DNA from: Candidatus Doudnabacteria bacterium
GTDB lineage: Bacteria; Patescibacteriota; Doudnabacteria; UBA920
Length of the DNA stretch: 64,000 bases
Direction of reading: 5' to 3'
Assembly: GCA_023245995.1 (NCBI GenBank)
Contig: JAHFJH010000003.1
Span: 1,585-65,584, forward strand
In this document: positions 7,250-55,405 of the stretch, one piece after another
Layout: the number at the start of each line of letters is the position of its first letter
How positions within the stretch are numbered: position 1 is the first letter of the stretch
Translations under genes and position numbers: made by a program
The notes under the pieces: generated by a model
The model's input: the letters and a program-made list of their open reading frames with translations, nothing else
Told to the model about the DNA's origin: nothing
Database searches by the model: none

Positions 7250-7666
7250 TTAGGCTTTCTTGTTCTTAGCGCCGTATTTAGAACGACCACGCTTTCTCCC
7301 GTCGACTCCGAGAGTGTCTAACTTACCTCTAACTATGTGGTAACGTACACCAGCCAAATCTTTTACTCTTCCACCACGAAGTAGTACCACGCTATGTTCT
7401 TGCAAATTGTGCCCAACTCCAGGAATGTAGGCCAAAACTTCCATGCCATTGGTAAGTTTTACCTTGGCCACTTTACGTAAAGCAGAGTTAGGTTTACGAG
7501 GAGTAGTAGTGTACACCTTTAAACAAACGCCACGAATAAAAGGAGCTCCTTTTATTTCTATGGGCTTATTTTTTATTAAATTAATGCGACGGCGGAGTGC
7601 CGGAGACGCAGGTTTTACCCGTAAGGGTTTGCGGCCTTTTCTGACCAGCTGATTTATTGTTGGCAT
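7250..7666 (-). CDS. rpsL: 30S ribosomal protein S12
   Basis: [24 protein letters not shown]...[17 protein letters not shown]. Canonical S12. Confidence 0.97.
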
Positions 7667-7760: not shown

Positions 7761-7781
7761 CTGTTCACTCAAAATAAAAAC

Positions 7782-7812
7782 CCAAGCAAAGGGTTTTTTG
7801 CTTTTCTTCACT
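7782..7812. terminator. A-run/hairpin/T-run element (possible bidirectional terminator)
   Basis: aaaaaccc-aagcaaa-gggttttttg; the stem is extended by A/T pairing on both strands. Confidence 0.3.
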
Positions 7813-7817
7813 ACCAG

Positions 7818-7853
7818 TACCCGCCTCTTCGGCGGGTCGCCGATGAGGCGACT
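7818..7853. ncRNA. conserved double-hairpin motif, copy 1 (unknown function)
   Basis: tacCCGCCtcttcGGCGGG followed by GTCGCCgatgaGGCGAC. The same two-hairpin unit recurs at 23863-23897 with compensatory stem changes, and partially at 24301-24322. Confidence 0.3.
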
Positions 7854-8122
7854 CCCTTGAAACCTGTAAGGGTTAAACTTCCTAGTAAATGAGACCAAAT
7901 AATAGTAATTCCTTAAAGTTTCGACTCTAAGGGGCTTCCTATTCACTTGTTAAAGAAATTATACCTAAATAAGCCCAAAACCGTCAATATTGACTTTATA
8001 GTCAATATATGCTACAATATCGCATATTTGCTTGCTTATATAGAACATAGAACTTCGATCCTCAATTAAGGGGAACGAATACCTGTAAACGCCCATAAAA
8101 AGTAAGCCAGTAAGGAGGAAAC

Positions 8123-22880: not shown

Positions 22881-23711
22881 CTATTTATTATTCGAGTCGT
22901 CTTTGTGTTGCGCCGGCAAGACTGAGACGCTAAAATTCTCGCTCGCAGTAATTGCAGTGTTTATTTCTTTATACCTAGCTATGGCAGTGCTAGCGGTTAT
23001 GTAGCCGTCTACATAAAAATCTTTTCCTACATAGTTCTGTGCTGTAGTATAAAGCTCGGTTGTCGCGGCAAGTGCGTCGGTTAAGGTTGCATACTGCTCT
23101 GGCCGAAGCATATTCTGTGCGTCGGTTAAAGCCTGTCTTGTAATTTTGTTAGTTTGGTCAAGTAAACTTATCTTTCCGTCTATGCCTTTTACTAAATTTT
23201 GTTGTTGATAGGCGTCTCGGAACTGCTTGTCTATGTCGCTACGAAATTGCTCAAAAGCACTGAGATTGTTTTGCATAAACATAATGTCTAATCCCGATCT
23301 TGTCGTGTCATTGTCTATAAGCGCCTTTAACACTTGCTTGTGTATGCTAGTAATAGAGACGCTATTTGCAGCCAAAGTATCTGCCGACTTATAGTCTCCA
23401 CTGCGTGTGTCGGAAATTATTGTAGCTATAACTCTACCAACGGTTATATCTAGAGCTACTCTAGCAGATTTTTCCTCAGCACTGTTTTTACTAAACCAAG
23501 CACTTTCAATTTCTGCGTACCTCTGGTCTAGTTGGCGCGCCAAAGTTTCTGCTCGTGCGGGACCAGTTATATTTACCCATACCCATACCGGCTCGTTTAT
23601 TTTGGTTTCTAAACCGTACAAAAAACCAGATGGCCTTGCTTGAATAGCAAGCGGGATACTTACCACATAAGCCAAAACAAGCAAAAGAAAAATTATTTTT
23701 ATGTATTTCAT
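22881..23711 (-). CDS. hypothetical secreted protein
   Basis: Signal peptide MKYIKIIFLLLVLAYVVSIPLAIQA. 276 aa, no motif recognised. Confidence 0.45.
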   Translation of the reverse strand: MKYIKIIFLLLVLAYVVSIPLAIQARPSGFLYGLETKINEPVWVWVNITGPARAETLARQLDQRYAEIESAWFSKNSAEEKSARVALDITVGRVIATIISDTRSGDYKSADTLAANSVSITSIHKQVLKALIDNDTTRSGLDIMFMQNNLSAFEQFRSDIDKQFRDAYQQQNLVKGIDGKISLLDQTNKITRQALTDAQNMLRPEQYATLTDALAATTELYTTAQNYVGKDFYVDGYITASTAIARYKEINTAITASENFSVSVLPAQHKDDSNNK

Positions 23712-23781
23712 ACGACGATTTTTATTTTATTGGATGTATTTTATTAAAATAAATTTATATAAAACAGTCAACAAATAAATT

Positions 23782-23862
23782 TGGTCAGGATACTGGGAAT
23801 TGAACCCAGTCTACACCCACCCCACGTGTCCGCCATAGCTTTAGCGAAGGCGGATGGGCGCG
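23782..23862 (-). other. tRNA-like 3' half (T-arm, acceptor 3' strand, ACCA) with no foldable 5' half
   Basis: Minus strand reads ...GACUGGGUUCAAUUCCCAGUAUCCUGACCA, a perfect T-stem/loop plus 7-nt acceptor strand plus discriminator and CCA. The expected CAGGAUA 5' strand is absent upstream. The conserved double-hairpin motif lies where the 5' half should be. Confidence 0.3.
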
Positions 23863-23897
23863 TACCCGCCTCCTCGGCGGGCTGCCGATGAGGCAGC
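23863..23897. ncRNA. conserved double-hairpin motif, copy 2
   Basis: tacCCGCCtcctcGGCGGG followed by GCTGCCgatgaGGCAGC. Relative to copy 1 the second stem changes TC/GA to CT/AG, which is compensatory. Confidence 0.3.
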
Positions 23898-23922
23898 TAC
23901 CACTACTTTAATAAATAAGCTC

Positions 23923-23996
23923 TGGTCGGGGTACCAGGAATCGAACCGGGACTACAAGACCCCCAGCCTTGCGTACTACCACTATACTATACCCCG
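23923..23996 (-). tRNA. tRNA-Pro (anticodon GGG)
   Basis: Hand fold: CGGGGTA/TACCCCG acceptor stem, D-loop AGTGGTAG, anticodon stem CAAGG/TCTTG with loop CTGGGGG (GGG, G37), T-loop TTCGATT, ACCA encoded. There is one C·U mismatch in the T-stem. Confidence 0.75.
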
Positions 23997-24004
23997 TCCC
24001 AAGC

Positions 24005-24279
24005 TCACCTACTAGTTCTATTTTTAAAATAACTTTCTAGTTTCTGCCTTAGCACTTCTCTCCCATATCCTGTTTTGAAAAACTTCTCTGCTTTTAAAGC
24101 ATCACGCTTTTCTATATACGCTTCATAAAATACCAGTTTAAACGGTCCATTCTTGGCTGTATATTTACCACCACGTTACCATTATGTTCTTTAAACCTTC
24201 TCCTTAGATCATCAGTACTGCCATAATATAGTTTATGATTACCAATAGATTCCAAAATGTAGGCATACCACATATACAT
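24005..24279 (-). pseudogene. frameshifted GIY-YIG (YhbQ/UPF0213-like) small nuclease gene
   Basis: Frame A gives MYMWYAYILESIGNHKLYYGSTDDLRRRFKEHNGN, then a stop. The +2 frame continues with GGKYTAKNGPFKLVFYEAYIEKRDALKAEKFFKTGYGREVLRQKLESYFKNRTSR*. The two frames together make a complete GIY-YIG domain broken by about a 1-nt indel near 24175 (AAA/AA run). Confidence 0.6.
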
Positions 24280-24300
24280 TCAACACTGCACCGTCTTTTT

Positions 24301-24322
24301 GGTGAACCGCCGATGAGGTGAC
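24301..24322. ncRNA. partial third copy of the conserved hairpin motif
   Basis: gaaCCGCCgatgaGGTGac shares the CGCCGATGAGG core with copies 1 and 2. Confidence 0.2.
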
Positions 24323-24346
24323 TAATTACTCTTTGCTTGCTAACAA

Positions 24347-25372
24347 CTACACCGTAAAGTAGGGCATGTCGTTTGAGCTGTCCGTTGAAGTATTAAGTGC
24401 TTCTTTGTGCTCAGCCATCTTTTCTATTATATCCTGCAGTTCTTCGTCGCTGAAAAATTCTATTGTTATTTTTCCACCCTTACCCTGACGTTGAACCTTT
24501 ACTTGTGTGCCCAAACGAGTCCTAAGCTCTGACTCTATGGCCATGAGTTTTGGATCTGGAGCTGCAGCGTCCATTTGTCGTTTTAGTGAAAGCTCACGAG
24601 CTTTAGCTTCTACCTGACGCACATTTAAATTTTGGTCAATAATTGCTTTAAATAAAGCTAACTGTTTTTCCGGTTCACTTACCCCAAGTATTGCGCGTGC
24701 ATGCCCTTCGGTAATTCTACCGTCAATAACTGCCCGCTGAACTTCCACTGGCAAATTTAATAAACGAAGGGTATTGGTCACAGCTGGCCGGCTTTTGCCA
24801 ACCTTCTGCGCCACTTGATCTTGAGTTAAATTAAAAGTTTTAATTAAACGGTCGTAAGCCCGCGCTTCTTCTATAGCGTTAAGTTCCCTGCGTTGAATAT
24901 TTTCAATTAATGCTACCTCTAGTTTAGTTTGGTCTTCTAAACTTTGTTTTACAATTGCAGGAACGCGCAAAAGCCCAGCCAAAATAGAAGCACGAAACCT
25001 GCGCTCCCCTACTACTAACTCATAACCCGCAGATGTTTTAGTAACTACAATTGGTTGAATAACTCCATACTCTTTTATGGAGGCAGCAAGCTCTTTTAGA
25101 CCCTCTGGGTCAAAAATTTTTCTTGGTTGAAAAGGATTTGGAACAATCTTTGTAACTTCTATTTCTTCTATTTGCGCATCTTGATAGGAAACTCGTTCAT
25201 TTACAGTATCTGGTATATTTAAAGGTTCGAACACTTCAGTCGGAGCGGCAACAGTAGCAACCTGTGGCACTGGTGCCATGTAACCTAAAATAGATGAAAA
25301 CACATCATCGTCCAATACTGGTTCAGTGTATAAATTGTTGTTTGTAGTTTGTGTTGTTATACCGTCTAACAT
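24347..25372 (-). CDS. parB: ParB/Spo0J-family partition protein (start moved to an internal ATG)
   Basis: GERRFRASILAG box, HTH region LTQDQVAQKVGKSRPAVTNTLRLL, ParB N-terminal domain. The track ORF's N-terminus overlaps tRNA-Leu, so the start is taken at MLDGITT (ATG 25372). Confidence 0.85.
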   Translation of the reverse strand: MLDGITTQTTNNNLYTEPVLDDDVFSSILGYMAPVPQVATVAAPTEVFEPLNIPDTVNERVSYQDAQIEEIEVTKIVPNPFQPRKIFDPEGLKELAASIKEYGVIQPIVVTKTSAGYELVVGERRFRASILAGLLRVPAIVKQSLEDQTKLEVALIENIQRRELNAIEEARAYDRLIKTFNLTQDQVAQKVGKSRPAVTNTLRLLNLPVEVQRAVIDGRITEGHARAILGVSEPEKQLALFKAIIDQNLNVRQVEAKARELSLKRQMDAAAPDPKLMAIESELRTRLGTQVKVQRQGKGGKITIEFFSDEELQDIIEKMAEHKEALNTSTDSSNDMPYFTV

Positions 25373-25417: not shown

Positions 25418-25502
25418 TGGTGCCGGTGGTGGGAGTCGAACCCACACATCTTTCGATACACGATTTTGAGTCGTGCGCGTCTGCCAGTTCCGCCACACCG
25501 GC
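25418..25502 (-). tRNA. tRNA-Leu (anticodon CAA), class II with a long variable arm
   Basis: GCCGGTG/CACCGGC acceptor stem, D-arm TGGCGGAACTGGCAGACGC (close to E. coli tRNA-Leu), anticodon loop CTCAAAA, T-arm GTGGGTTCGACTCCCAC, CCA encoded. Confidence 0.85.
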
Positions 25503-54310: not shown

Positions 54311-54385
54311 CGCCCTTGTAGCTCAATGGATAGAGCAGTGCTCTTCTAAGGCATTGATGTTGGTTCGATTCCAACCGAGGGCACC
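54311..54385 (+). tRNA. tRNA-Arg (anticodon UCU)
   Basis: GCCCTTG/CGAGGGC acceptor stem, D-arm GCTCAATGGATAGAGC, anticodon stem GTGCT/GGCAT with loop CTTCTAA, T-arm GTTGG-TTCGATT-CCAAC, CCA encoded. Confidence 0.85.
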
Positions 54386-54422
54386 ATTCGACTCGCGTTT
54401 CGTAAAACCTCAACACTCGCTC

Positions 54423-54737
54423 ATGGTCTACGACGAGCAGCAAAGTACTAAGTTTATACATAATAAAGTCGAATGCCCTGTCGTTCGAGACCCTGAGGGG
54501 TCCTCAGACCCTCGAAGGGAGCCTGTCGAAGGACAATACTATTTTTACATTCTGGAATGCAAAGATTCATCATTATATTGTGGCTCTTCAAATAATTTAA
54601 GCACTAGATTGCATACACACAACATAGGCAAGGCCGCTGAATGGACAGCTATCCGCAGACCTCTTCAACTTGTATACTACGAAAGCTACTATACATTAGT
54701 AGGTGCTCGCAAACGAGAACAGCAGGTAAAGGGTTGA
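54423..54737 (+). CDS. GIY-YIG (YhbQ/UPF0213-like) small nuclease
   Basis: YYFYILECKDSSLYCGSSNNLSTRLHTHNIGKAAEWTAIRRPLQLVYYESYYTLVGARKREQQVKG. The GIY-YIG motifs (Y..Y, G.T.[DN]L..R...H) are intact. Start set to MVYDEQQ, because the track ORF's N-terminus overlaps tRNA-Arg. Confidence 0.7.
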   Translation: MVYDEQQSTKFIHNKVECPVVRDPEGSSDPRREPVEGQYYFYILECKDSSLYCGSSNNLSTRLHTHNIGKAAEWTAIRRPLQLVYYESYYTLVGARKREQQVKG

Positions 54738-54787
54738 AGTAAAAAGAAAAAAGAATATTTAATAAACCATAAGTGGGGTAAACTATA

Positions 54788-55405
54788 ATGCTTAAAATAT
54801 ACCTTGCAAGACATGGACAGGACCAAGACAACGCAGCAGGCATTTTAAACGGTCATAGAAACATGCCGCTTACAGAAATTGGATTTGAACAAGCGCGAAC
54901 TGTAGCAACTAAAATAAAAGACGCGAATTTACATTTCGATGCAGTTTACACCTCGCCTCTTCTACGCGCCAAACAAACTGCAAATACAATAGTACAAAGC
55001 ATTGGTGGACCTACCCCAATTCCTTTAGAAAACCTTATAGAAAGAAATTTTGGGTGTATGAGTGGTAAACCTCAAAACATCATAACTGAAGTTTGTTCGC
55101 CCGATATTATTACAACCAATACTATAGTTTATTTTCTTAATCCTGAAGGCGCAGAAACTTTTCCAGATTTACTCGCGCGTGCAGAAAAATTACTCTTAAG
55201 AATAACCTCGCAGCACACAGAAGGTTCTATACTACTAGTTACCCATGGAGACTTTGGTAAAATGATTTACGCGCAATACTATAACCTACCCTGGCAAGAC
55301 ATACTAACACAGTTTCATTTTGGCAACTCTGAATTACTCCTGTTGAGTCCTGACTCTCCGGCTAACCAAGCGCATGTATTTGAAATAGAGCAGCATAACA
55401 CCTAA
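54788..55405 (+). CDS. histidine phosphatase family protein (phosphoglycerate mutase-like)
   Basis: The N-terminal LARHGQ (RHG catalytic motif) and the C-terminal VTHGDF are characteristic. Confidence 0.75.
   Translation: MLKIYLARHGQDQDNAAGILNGHRNMPLTEIGFEQARTVATKIKDANLHFDAVYTSPLLRAKQTANTIVQSIGGPTPIPLENLIERNFGCMSGKPQNIITEVCSPDIITTNTIVYFLNPEGAETFPDLLARAEKLLLRITSQHTEGSILLVTHGDFGKMIYAQYYNLPWQDILTQFHFGNSELLLLSPDSPANQAHVFEIEQHNT

Follow-up and report, generated by a model that had tools for sequence, protein, structure and literature searches.

Why should two small genes for GIY-YIG mini-nucleases, both of them broken, each adjoin a tRNA gene within one stretch of a genome from the candidate phyla radiation (CPR; Patescibacteria)? 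The stretch in question comprises 64,000 nucleotides of contig JAHFJH010000003.1 from Candidatus Doudnabacteria bacterium (assembly GCA_023245995.1, positions 1,585 to 65,584 of the forward strand; hereafter the window, in whose coordinates all positions are given). Copy 1 lies at 24005-24279 on the minus strand beside a tRNA-Pro gene, and copy 2 at 54423-54737 on the plus strand beside a tRNA-Arg gene. Both are recent pseudogenes, and both probably represent selfish, tRNA-linked cassettes in decay, of a kind common in CPR genomes. The interpretation that we favour, on balance, is that of a free-standing, homing-endonuclease-like cassette, which would combine a minimal nuclease of the SLX1/UPF0213 type with a replacement tRNA.

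The frame of copy 1 is interrupted once. From the ATG at 24279, the first minus-strand frame reads MYMWYAYILESIGNHKLYYGSTDDLRRRFKEHNGN, which is the first half of the GIY-YIG domain; the frame is lost after ...EHNGN, and translation then continues out of frame as far as a stop at 24112. Shifted back by one base, the reading frame gives RGGKYTAKNGPFKLVFYEAYIEKRDALKAEKFFKTGYGREVLRQKLESYFKNRTSR up to a stop (RGGKYTAK...FFKTGYGREVLRQKLESYFKNRTSR, stop codon 24007-24005). The family start is probably the ATG at 24273 (MWYAY...). After repair, copy 1 encodes 89 amino acids and matches the Pfam GIY-YIG profile PF01541 with an E-value of 9e-18 and 64.8 bits over profile positions 1-74 of 78, while the unrepaired open reading frame (ORF) of 55 amino acids covers positions 1-38 only. 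Because EHNxKRGGKYT is read in frame in 95 database homologues (85-92 amino acids, up to 76% identity to copy 1), the lesion is the loss of one A from an AAA lysine codon, between 24176 and 24175. The tRNA-Pro(GGG) gene is on the same strand and starts 8 nt past the stop of copy 1. The first-pass annotation, made from the letters alone, had described just this, a domain split by a single-base indel 8 nt from tRNA-Pro, and the ORF frames, ARAGORN and Pfam bear it out, except that the supposed A-run is merely AA, formerly AAA.

That annotation had left undecided between a pseudogene, a sequencing error and a programmed frameshift, and only the first of these survives. The same break is present in L001 (ERZ27280176), an independent assembly from another sample, with 1 mismatch and 0 gaps over 6,711 nt, and in a contig of 138.7 kb, assembled from a third sample, the genes at the locus are spaced in the same way. 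At the break point, the frame is kept in almost all of the 80 relatives from other genomes described below, and no slippery heptamer of the X XXY YYZ type is found at the shift site (AAT GGT AAC GTG GTG), so that copy 1 is a pseudogene. A programmed -1 ribosomal frameshift is not supported, as the slippery motif is absent at the site and the homologues are in frame. The hairpin module upstream of the ORF, which is introduced below, is decayed likewise.

Copy 2 belongs to the UPF0213/YhbQ-like subfamily and matches the GIY-YIG profile with 1e-12 and 48.7 bits, so both copies exceed the PF01541 gathering cut-off of 22.6 bits. Its ATG is the 37th base past the end of tRNA-Arg(UCU) (54312-54386, plus strand; ARAGORN, Rfam), with 36 nt between them, and ARAGORN and Pfam confirm the position that had been assigned to it. 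The motifs had been called intact; instead, the gene is truncated by nonsense, its TGA (54735-54737) occupying the place of a tryptophan (VKGW) that all of 13 homologues share. The 16 codons after it, the in-frame remainder at 54738-54788 (SKKKKEYLINHKWGKL, then a stop), still match the family C-terminus xRxKKENLIxGKWxK, and 16 conserved C-terminal residues are thus lost through the TGA. Rescue through the reading of UGA as sense (code 4 or 25) was considered and rejected: the window contains 227 TGG codons, TGA ends 4 of 57 long ORFs, and table-11 ORFs span 88% of the window, showing that the standard code is in use. Neither copy, therefore, holds the GIY-YIG domain in a single uninterrupted ORF.

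Alignment of the two proteins, at 38% identity over 66 residues, shows the same domain in two different subfamilies, and their junction architectures differ as well. Copy 1 lies upstream of its tRNA and has a junction made of a tRNA 5' fragment and hairpins, whereas copy 2 directly follows a CCA end. All of the closest relatives of copy 2 have their start 35-37 nt past the CCA of a tRNA or of a gene resembling transfer-messenger RNA (tmRNA). The conserved left junction, at 54387-54422 in the window, reads CCA, then TTCGACTCG, a short hairpin and CTCGCTC, followed by the ATG, and is common to the window, to the tmRNA-like loci L168, L170 and L173, and to the tRNA-Ala locus L171. At L168, L170 and L173 the copy-2-type genes come right after a tmRNA-like 3' end (GGAC..GGGTTTAACTCC..CATCTCCACCA), about 35 nt before position 1501; at L170, the genes that come before encode a CD-NTase and a Cap15-like effector, as in cyclic-oligonucleotide-based antiphage signalling systems (CBASS).

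The N-terminal leader of copy 2 carries a palindromic insertion of 39 nt (VVRDPEGSSDPRR, 54480-54518, plus strand) between RVECP and EPVEGQ. This palindrome occurs elsewhere only in P0097, and other homologues have different inserts at the same codon, which makes that codon a small insertion hot-spot within the coding leader.

Residues Y5, Y16, G18, R26, H30, E51 and E63, among them the catalytic ones (Tyr of GIY, Tyr-x-Gly of YIG, Arg, His and the metal-binding Glu), are invariant in the alignment of the family (A1), and all are encoded in the window DNA; the glutamates of copy 1, the metal-binding one included, fall after the frameshift. A profile of the copy-1 subfamily searched against the Protein Data Bank (PDB) matched UPF0213 structures 1zg2 (3.6e-13) and 1ywl (1e-10) and SLX1 (7e-6). 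The AlphaFold model of P0001, the closest intact homologue, has a predicted local distance difference test (pLDDT) score of 93, and its best Foldseek matches are UPF0213 1zg2, HIGLE and Slx1 (E = 6e-4 to 1e-2), with I-TevI at 0.24 and UvrC at 2.3. Sequence profile and predicted fold thus place the copy-1 subfamily nearer to UPF0213/SLX1 than to the I-TevI or UvrC branches. Family members have 81-92 amino acids, and the catalytic fold fills the whole predicted model, with no separate DNA-binding domain. The C-terminus of the copy-1 subfamily is AEKFFKTGYGREVL, and the copy-2 family ends in KGWxRxKK. The NCBIfam match was below threshold (grpIintron_endo, 22.9 bits against a cut-off of 56), and among the PADLOC defence models copy 1 gave a weak PDC-M57B match only (19.6 bits, 1.4e-4) and copy 2 none.

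Is the proximity to tRNA genes a peculiarity of this window? When one genome per species was scanned with the copy-1 alignment, 191 relatives were obtained, and the best 80 of these were analysed as loci. Most of the 80 are labelled as Patescibacteria/CPR metagenome-assembled genomes, and other taxon labels on some third-party-annotated records are probably mislabels. A tRNA gene lies within 150 nt on the same strand at 58 of the 80 loci, downstream at 39 and upstream at 19, and none of the 80 has an opposite-strand tRNA within that distance. The tRNA adjacency expected from the background tRNA density in the same loci is about 2.5%, and the association is far beyond chance. The partners are tRNA-Gln (26), tRNA-Ser (26), tRNA-Pro (4) and tRNA-Gly (2). 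The repeated association of small GIY-YIG genes with tRNA loci, first suggested by two instances, is therefore well founded. Within the 64-kb window, tblastn found no further copies. Only 13 of 80 loci in a broader YhbQ-like metagenome set are tRNA-linked, mostly on low-GC contigs, so that the link with tRNA genes does not extend to the superfamily as a whole.

In a neighbour-joining tree of the GIY-YIG proteins (short sequences, no bootstrap) the grouping follows the tRNA isotype and the orientation, not the host lineage, and Falkowbacteria adjoins Curtissbacteria.

Two further observations concern these loci. Many contigs (L002, L004, L011, L024, L028, L032, L070, L072 and others) stop 70-500 nt past the GIY-YIG gene, which would fit assembly breaks at repeated tRNA and hairpin sequence. 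In the Microgenomates loci L051-L080, the ORF follows tRNA-Ser across a conserved, AT-rich element of about 85 nt with two hairpins (AACGTAAGAAATTGCAAAGCAATTTCAACGTTGCTGGAACGCTTAAATTTGCTTTGCAAATTTATTGCGTTTCCGCC; for example L074:3916-4000 and L080:3916-4000), which begins at the ..CCGC(CA) end of the tRNA-Ser and closes with CCGCC just before the ATG.

The loci share an anatomy. At about 30 of them, the tRNA that lies downstream has its positions 1-21/22 (Gln, Pro, Glu) exactly duplicated 55-75 nt upstream of the ORF; at the Ser and Gly loci, the duplicated fragment comprises positions 1-13. The fragment is followed by a GC-rich hairpin pair (HP pair; consensus TCGCCTCNTCGGCGA CCCGCCGANGAGGCGGG), 3-10 more tRNA bases, a short spacer, the ORF and, 2-40 nt further on, a complete tRNA. 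The HP pair is found 35-55 nt upstream of the ORF start in about 30 loci and is almost always flanked by ...GGTAG on one side and (G)GAC or TAC on the other, that is, by the tRNA D-arm split at position 21/22. It folds as two adjacent hairpins, with 100% pairing across 26 sequences and compensatory changes in 5 of 11 pairs, a covariation that was reached by 0 of 500 shuffles; a single long hairpin of 13 bp was rejected (87.6% paired, below the shuffled mean). The copy-1 cassette consists of four parts, namely the tRNA 5' fragment, the HP pair in the D-loop (position 21/22), an ORF that encodes the catalytic domain alone (about 85 amino acids), and a complete tRNA a few bases past its stop. At L011 the whole unit is tandemly doubled. 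A duplicate of its own sequence of at least 12 nt was found near 30 of 59 ORF-adjacent tRNAs versus 7 of 33 background tRNAs (p = 0.0075).

At several loci, the intact tRNA is followed by another copy that is disabled and whose loops contain hairpins. The pseudo-copy of tRNA-Gln at L067 has an HP pair at 21/22 and a single hairpin at 33/34, analogous to the anticodon-loop insert of the window that is described below, and the disabled copies at L012, L014, L029 and L003 have hairpins in the T-loop. A displaced remnant beside an intact tRNA, as in the window, is also found at L067, L012, L082 and L085. A distinct type of hairpin or junction goes with each nuclease subfamily. At L014:1690-1930, a second, different GIY-YIG ORF (MANFTVYILQSQQ...) stands in tandem with the first and is preceded by tRNA-Gln positions 1-18 and by a hairpin pair of another kind (CCCCGCCGCAGCGGGG TCCCGCTATAGCGGGA), so that the choice of hairpin appears to vary with the nuclease subfamily.

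A perfect solo HP pair (TCGCCTCATCGGCGACCCGCCGAAGAGGCGGG) lies at 7821-7851 of the window on the minus strand, within a region of about 7770-7990, with no GIY-YIG ORF or tRNA nearby. It is situated between a promoter-like site (TTGACG-17-TATAAT) and a terminator-like hairpin, upstream of rpsL (ATG near 7666), and its flanks (..GGGAG before, GTAC.. after) resemble the D-arm target. The region may be a small RNA or leader that took in a hairpin element.

What happened at the tRNA-Pro locus of the window can be read part by part, on the minus strand, from the parB stop at 24347 onwards. First comes a degenerate HP pair with broken stems (TCACCTCATCGGCGG TTCACCAAAAAGACGGTG, 24289-24321), upstream of the ORF in the same place as in about 30 relatives and 71% identical to an intact HP pair further on (direct repeat D1). 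The copy-1 pseudogene follows, and then an intact tRNA-Pro(GGG) at 23923-23996 (ARAGORN; 55.3 bits with the Rfam tRNA model), here called N-type, which we interpret as the replacement copy associated with the cassette; in the D arm and the anticodon arm it is identical to the sole tRNA-Pro of L083, L085 and L176. Beyond it lie an orphan D-loop fragment (AGTAGTGGTAG, 23897-23907), with no 5' acceptor strand ahead of it, and the intact HP pair (CTGCCTCATCGGCAG CCCGCCGAGGAGGCGGG, 23865-23896), inserted at D-loop position 21/22 of the resident, R-type tRNA-Pro(GGG). Positions 22-33 of that gene (TAC G CGCCC AT, 23854-23864) match the intact tRNA-Pro of L086. They are separated by a hairpin insertion of 30 nt between U33 and G34 in the anticodon loop (23824-23853), absent from L086 and with a homologue at the same position in L082 (24 of 30 nt identical), from positions 34-76 with the anticodon GGG, the T arm, the 3' acceptor strand and CCA (23782-23823, reading GGGGT GGGTG TAGA CTGGG TTCAATT CCCAG TATCCTG A CCA).

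Over positions 22-76, the remnant agrees in 51 of 53 nt with the intact gene of L086, and the window remnant is therefore the ancestral resident R-type gene. Neither ARAGORN nor Rfam calls a tRNA in 23907-23782, a GC-rich and strongly folded stretch (z = -4.3), but the comparison with L086 and L082 identifies it as the disrupted resident tRNA-Pro. As a piece of tmRNA, a tRNA-Sec or a new small RNA, this 125-nt element was rejected, the Rfam and ARAGORN signals being at noise level (tmRNA_permuted, 12 bits). The GGTGTAG after parB resembles what might be left of a tRNA 5' fragment, but belongs to parB itself, of which it forms the conserved end and the stop codon.

Two familiar kinds of tRNA-associated element do not fit the locus. 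Group I introns with endonucleases are known from tRNA-Asn and tRNA-Asp genes of Patescibacteria (PMC13011429). In the window, however, the functional tRNA is uninterrupted, and no Rfam intron family was found over 23600-24500, either at the gathering threshold or at E-values up to 5. An integrative element of the recombinase type that targets tRNA genes fits no better: the unit is about 0.5 kb long, the duplicated piece is the 5' part of the tRNA, and no recombinase gene lies between parB and the next gene. A metagenome scan for relatives of the 276-amino-acid neighbour protein found none. The table-11 ORF listing stretches parB upstream through tRNA-Leu(CAA) at 25418-25502; the real ParB start is the ATG at 25372 (341 amino acids), as in public assemblies.

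The same chromosomal site can be inspected in relatives whose ParB is 71-80% identical, the named ones of which are from Candidatus Doudnabacteria and which share the gene order BacA-PAP2-tRNA-Leu(CAA)-ParB-tRNA-Pro(GGG). The ORF is present at the parB-tRNA-Pro site only in the window, and the site is empty in four of the relatives. In L086, parB is followed by a single intact R-type tRNA-Pro without the ORF, and in L083, L085 and L176 by the N-type tRNA-Pro only, with neither ORF nor hairpins. L082 holds an intermediate place: after resident positions 1-26 come an N-type tRNA between inverted repeats of 12 bp and then the rest of the resident gene, with the 30-nt anticodon-loop insert and an extra hairpin in the variable loop, the ORF being absent. 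In the ParB tree, the L086 lineage lies outside the group that carries the N-type. The simplest order of events would be a single invasion, replacement of the resident tRNA and then stepwise loss of the nuclease and of the debris; it would run from L086, with its intact R-type gene, by way of the window and then L082 to L083, L085 and L176.

The tRNA-Leu(CAA) site shows the same replacement process independently. L085 has a GIY-YIG ORF there, together with a resident tRNA-Leu that is interrupted both by a hairpin and by a new tRNA-Leu nested within it, and with repeated hairpin elements of 52 nt; L176 has the new type only and the window the resident type only, and the GIY-YIG ORF is found at this site only in L085. 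Two features of mobile ORFs are thus in evidence, namely a presence/absence polymorphism at a conserved site (parB-tRNA-Pro as well as tRNA-Leu(CAA)) and co-transferred host-gene sequence with a displaced native remnant (the N-type gene and the R-type remnant).

It should be noted that other elements are found at these sites. An ORF of the LAGLIDADG type lies between the replaced tRNA-Leu(CAA) and parB in the Doudnabacteria relative L176 (L176:1548-1964), so that homing endonucleases of another family make use of this tRNA site as well. At L082:3840-4100 and L085:2095-2375, a whole tRNA is nested in the resident tRNA near position 26/27 between inverted repeats of 10-12 bp (TCCCACATTAAC...GTTAATGTGGGA; GCCCCGTATA...TGTACGGGGC), with a duplicated TAC(G) at L082. 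These nested tRNAs resemble a tRNA-carrying miniature transposon.

Taken in sequence, the observations suggest the following course. In an ancestor of the Doudnabacteria-like lineage, a cassette would have entered the parB-proximal tRNA-Pro(GGG) locus; the resident tRNA-Pro would have been disabled by loss of its 5' end, by an HP pair in the D-loop and by a hairpin in the anticodon loop, and the tRNA-Pro of the cassette would have become the working copy. As the cell would from then on need the cassette tRNA, this tRNA would be kept while the nuclease gene and the hairpin module decay. In the window, the decay would be represented by the 1-nt deletion in the ORF and the broken stems of the upstream HP pair, and relatives that have retained the replacement tRNA alone would be further along the same path. 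The nuclease would cut cassette-free tRNA genes, and repair of the break from a cassette-bearing copy would copy in the ORF and the tRNA sequence, in the way in which a replacement piece of the host gene is brought in by free-standing homing endonucleases and by the mobile ORFs of fungal mitochondria. The target would more likely be recognized by DNA structure (a hairpin or cloverleaf) than by a long sequence, because a DNA-binding domain is absent, the protein resembles structure-specific nucleases, and every insertion is in a tRNA loop. Cleavage, the homing or repair route, mobility and retention through dependence on the replacement tRNA are what we infer from the anatomy of the loci. The hint in the first-pass annotation of a mobile or selfish behaviour gains strong support from cassettes with duplicated tRNA fragments, empty sites, decay intermediates and the disrupted resident tRNA-Pro.

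Several points weigh against this interpretation. The case is built on comparative anatomy, from which cleavage and transfer would follow indirectly. A catalytic domain of 85 amino acids with no DNA-binding domain is unlike known site-specific homing endonucleases, and the 5' sequence of the cassette tRNA is itself the duplicated fragment, so that this tRNA, too, would be open to cutting. A scan with the GIY-YIG alignment found no relatives on viral contigs. The N-type tRNA-Pro is the only copy in cassette-free relatives too, and its arrival with the cassette is deduced from one neighbour-joining tree without bootstrap. At the window locus, the resident 5' fragment is gone from upstream of the ORF and two HP pairs are present, so that the exact insertion events cannot be reconstructed. 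Lastly, the ORF is well conserved, with 60-76% identity and invariant catalytic residues, and its upstream neighbour is the same in some lineages (L009, L010, L013), both of which also fit long vertical inheritance of a useful gene.

This last point leads to the main rival explanation, namely that the ORF is a domesticated host gene, a small GIY-YIG housekeeping nuclease (acting, for example, in the repair or resolution of structured DNA at tRNA genes under heavy transcription) that is co-transcribed with the tRNA, which we regard as unlikely. In addition to the strong conservation of the family and its catalytic residues, it would account for the position of the ORF, always on the strand of the tRNA and very close to it, which suggests co-transcription, for the upstream gene that is shared by several Parcubacteria loci, and for the match of the fold to the SLX1/HIGLE repair nucleases. 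The tRNA fragments and hairpins would then be by-products of local recombination, and the window copy would merely have been lost. However, the ORF is present at some and absent from other orthologous tRNAs among relatives, both window copies are inactivated with no third in the 64 kb, the protein tree tracks the tRNA isotype and not the host, disrupted resident tRNAs adjoin replacement tRNAs, and the insertion at L011 is a tandem double one.

A further possibility is that the HP pairs are independent miniature inverted-repeat transposable elements, moved into tRNA loops by another enzyme, with the GIY-YIG ORF as an unrelated passenger or neighbour whose linkage would be only apparent, both having accumulated at tRNA genes. 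The solo HP pair at 7821-7851, the different hairpin families in D, anticodon, variable and T loops, and the transposon-like inserted tRNA of L082, with its 12-bp inverted repeats and TAC(G) duplication, all speak for such elements. Nevertheless, we think this improbable, as the HP pair keeps a fixed distance of 35-55 nt to the ORF start in about 30 loci, each nuclease subfamily has a hairpin or junction type of its own, and no transposase was seen in the stretches examined.

The hairpins might also act at the RNA level, as intervening sequences that are removed after transcription, so that the seemingly disrupted tRNA-Pro would still be used. There is a precedent in CPR rRNA genes, which contain stem-loop insertions that are not introns, some of them encoding GIY-YIG proteins (PMC11270868); moreover, all insertions in the tRNAs are in loops, and both substitutions in the remnant relative to L086 would keep pairing as G-U. 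Yet the window copy is without the entire 5' acceptor strand and half of the D arm, the L067 copy is short of 4 nt of the acceptor strand, an intact isoacceptor always lies beside the disrupted copy, and Rfam gave no intron or ribozyme match, all of which makes this explanation very improbable.

That copy 1 is really expressed at full length, its break being a sequencing or assembly error or a site of programmed frameshifting, is scarcely credible: the lesion is indeed one base in a short A stretch between two otherwise clean frame halves, but an AA dinucleotide is not an error-prone homopolymer, the independent assembly is identical and the third contig has the same spacing, no slippery heptamer is present, the frame is unbroken in 95 of 95 database homologues and in almost all of the 80 genomic loci, and the adjacent hairpin module is decayed too.

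If the genes belong to selfish cassettes, as we favour, how do these compare with known systems? The closest likeness is to the mobile ORFs of fungal mitochondria (Allomyces macrogynus atp6; Glomus atp6, atp9, cox2 and nad3), which carry a replacement gene end; the imported part of the gene becomes the expressed one, and the native part is left downstream and non-functional (PMC3630166). In both systems, an endonuclease ORF (of the GIY-YIG type in atp9) lies beside an essential gene and has brought its own copy of a part of that gene, and in both the native duplicate matches close relatives better than the inserted copy does, as exemplified here by the R-type remnant and L086. The cassettes differ in residing in bacterial tRNA and tmRNA genes and not in protein genes, in usually duplicating the 5' end or the whole of the tRNA, in the bare 85-amino-acid catalytic domain of the nuclease, in the double hairpin within the unit, and in that their mobility would be a deduction.

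T4 SegB is a GIY-YIG homing endonuclease in a phage tRNA gene cluster (PMC2330249). Like the ORFs described here, it is a free-standing GIY-YIG gene among tRNA genes, and it promotes the inheritance of its own tRNA region; unlike them, it is a full-length Seg-type enzyme with a DNA-binding region, acts in phage co-infection, and has neither a duplicated tRNA fragment nor a hairpin module. A further difference is that the window proteins are nearer to SLX1/UPF0213 than to I-TevI-type enzymes. The Seg family is related to I-TevI.

The UPF0213/YhbQ (COG2827) and SLX1/HIGLE proteins (1zg2, 1ywl, 7cq2, 7wme) are the best profile and fold matches of the copy-1 subfamily, and UPF0213 shares with it the minimal single-domain size and the conserved GIY, YIG, Arg, His and Glu positions; SLX1, unlike these, needs a RING domain and its partner SLX4. 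Neither a documented function nor a tRNA linkage of UPF0213 proteins was found in the open-access literature, and the same literature, searched for GIY-YIG with tRNA or CPR and for YhbQ, UPF0213 and COG2827, yielded no prior description of this GIY-YIG-tRNA arrangement. The CPR rRNA-gene insertions contain GIY-YIG ORFs, are neither group I nor group II introns, and occur at the tips or bases of stem-loops (PMC11270868). They have in common with the cassettes the hosts, at the level of the phylum, and the location of GIY-YIG ORFs in genes for structured RNAs. However, they lie inside rRNA genes and are believed to be excised from the rRNA, whereas in loci of the window type the functional tRNA has no interruption, and those copies that have one are truncated pseudogenes.

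The HP pair itself has a counterpart in the double-hairpin elements of fungal mitochondria, which likewise consist of two adjacent hairpins in AT-rich genomes, but are of unrelated sequence, occur in eukaryotic organelles and have no fixed position in the D-loop. These elements or GC clusters, described by Paquin, Laforest and Lang in 2000, are reportedly short, mobile and GC-rich and located near tRNA genes and endonuclease ORFs. As judged from these comparisons, the cassette would differ from the known homing types in its tRNA/tmRNA hosts, its minimal SLX1/UPF0213 domain, its covarying double hairpin and the restriction of its insertions to tRNA loops.

A bolder version of this interpretation, which we offer only tentatively, is that of an undescribed class of structure-guided mobile elements of CPR bacteria, in which an SLX1-like nuclease would recognize extruded hairpin or cloverleaf DNA and the replacement tRNA would enforce the dependence of the host. 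The nuclease would act at tRNA, tmRNA and possibly rRNA genes, cutting D, anticodon or T loops; repair would copy in the hairpins, the nuclease ORF and the replacement tRNA, and the destruction of the resident tRNA would result in an addiction-like persistence. ORF-less hairpin pairs such as that at 7821-7851 would be non-autonomous relatives.

If the cassette interpretation is true, it has practical consequences for the reading of CPR genomes. It would explain tRNA pseudo-fragments and odd GC-rich hairpins in them, and may explain why so many contigs break off no more than a few hundred bases from these genes. Annotation at present mis-calls or misses tRNAs borne by cassettes, resident tRNAs that have been disrupted, and extensions of ORFs into hairpins or tRNAs; for example, P0003 and P0005 end in RGVVYR, and the N-terminus of P0007 is a translated hairpin.

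The wider meaning concerns the organisms and the protein family. The tRNA genes of the smallest bacterial genomes would be turned over by a compact selfish element, about 0.5 kb long, which puts its own tRNA in the place of the resident one. Bacteria would thus have a parallel to the mobile ORFs by which gene ends are replaced in mitochondria. The nuclease at the centre of the cassette would be a minimal and possibly structure-recognizing one, and the large UPF0213/YhbQ-like family, the function of which is unknown, would thereby obtain its first biological context.

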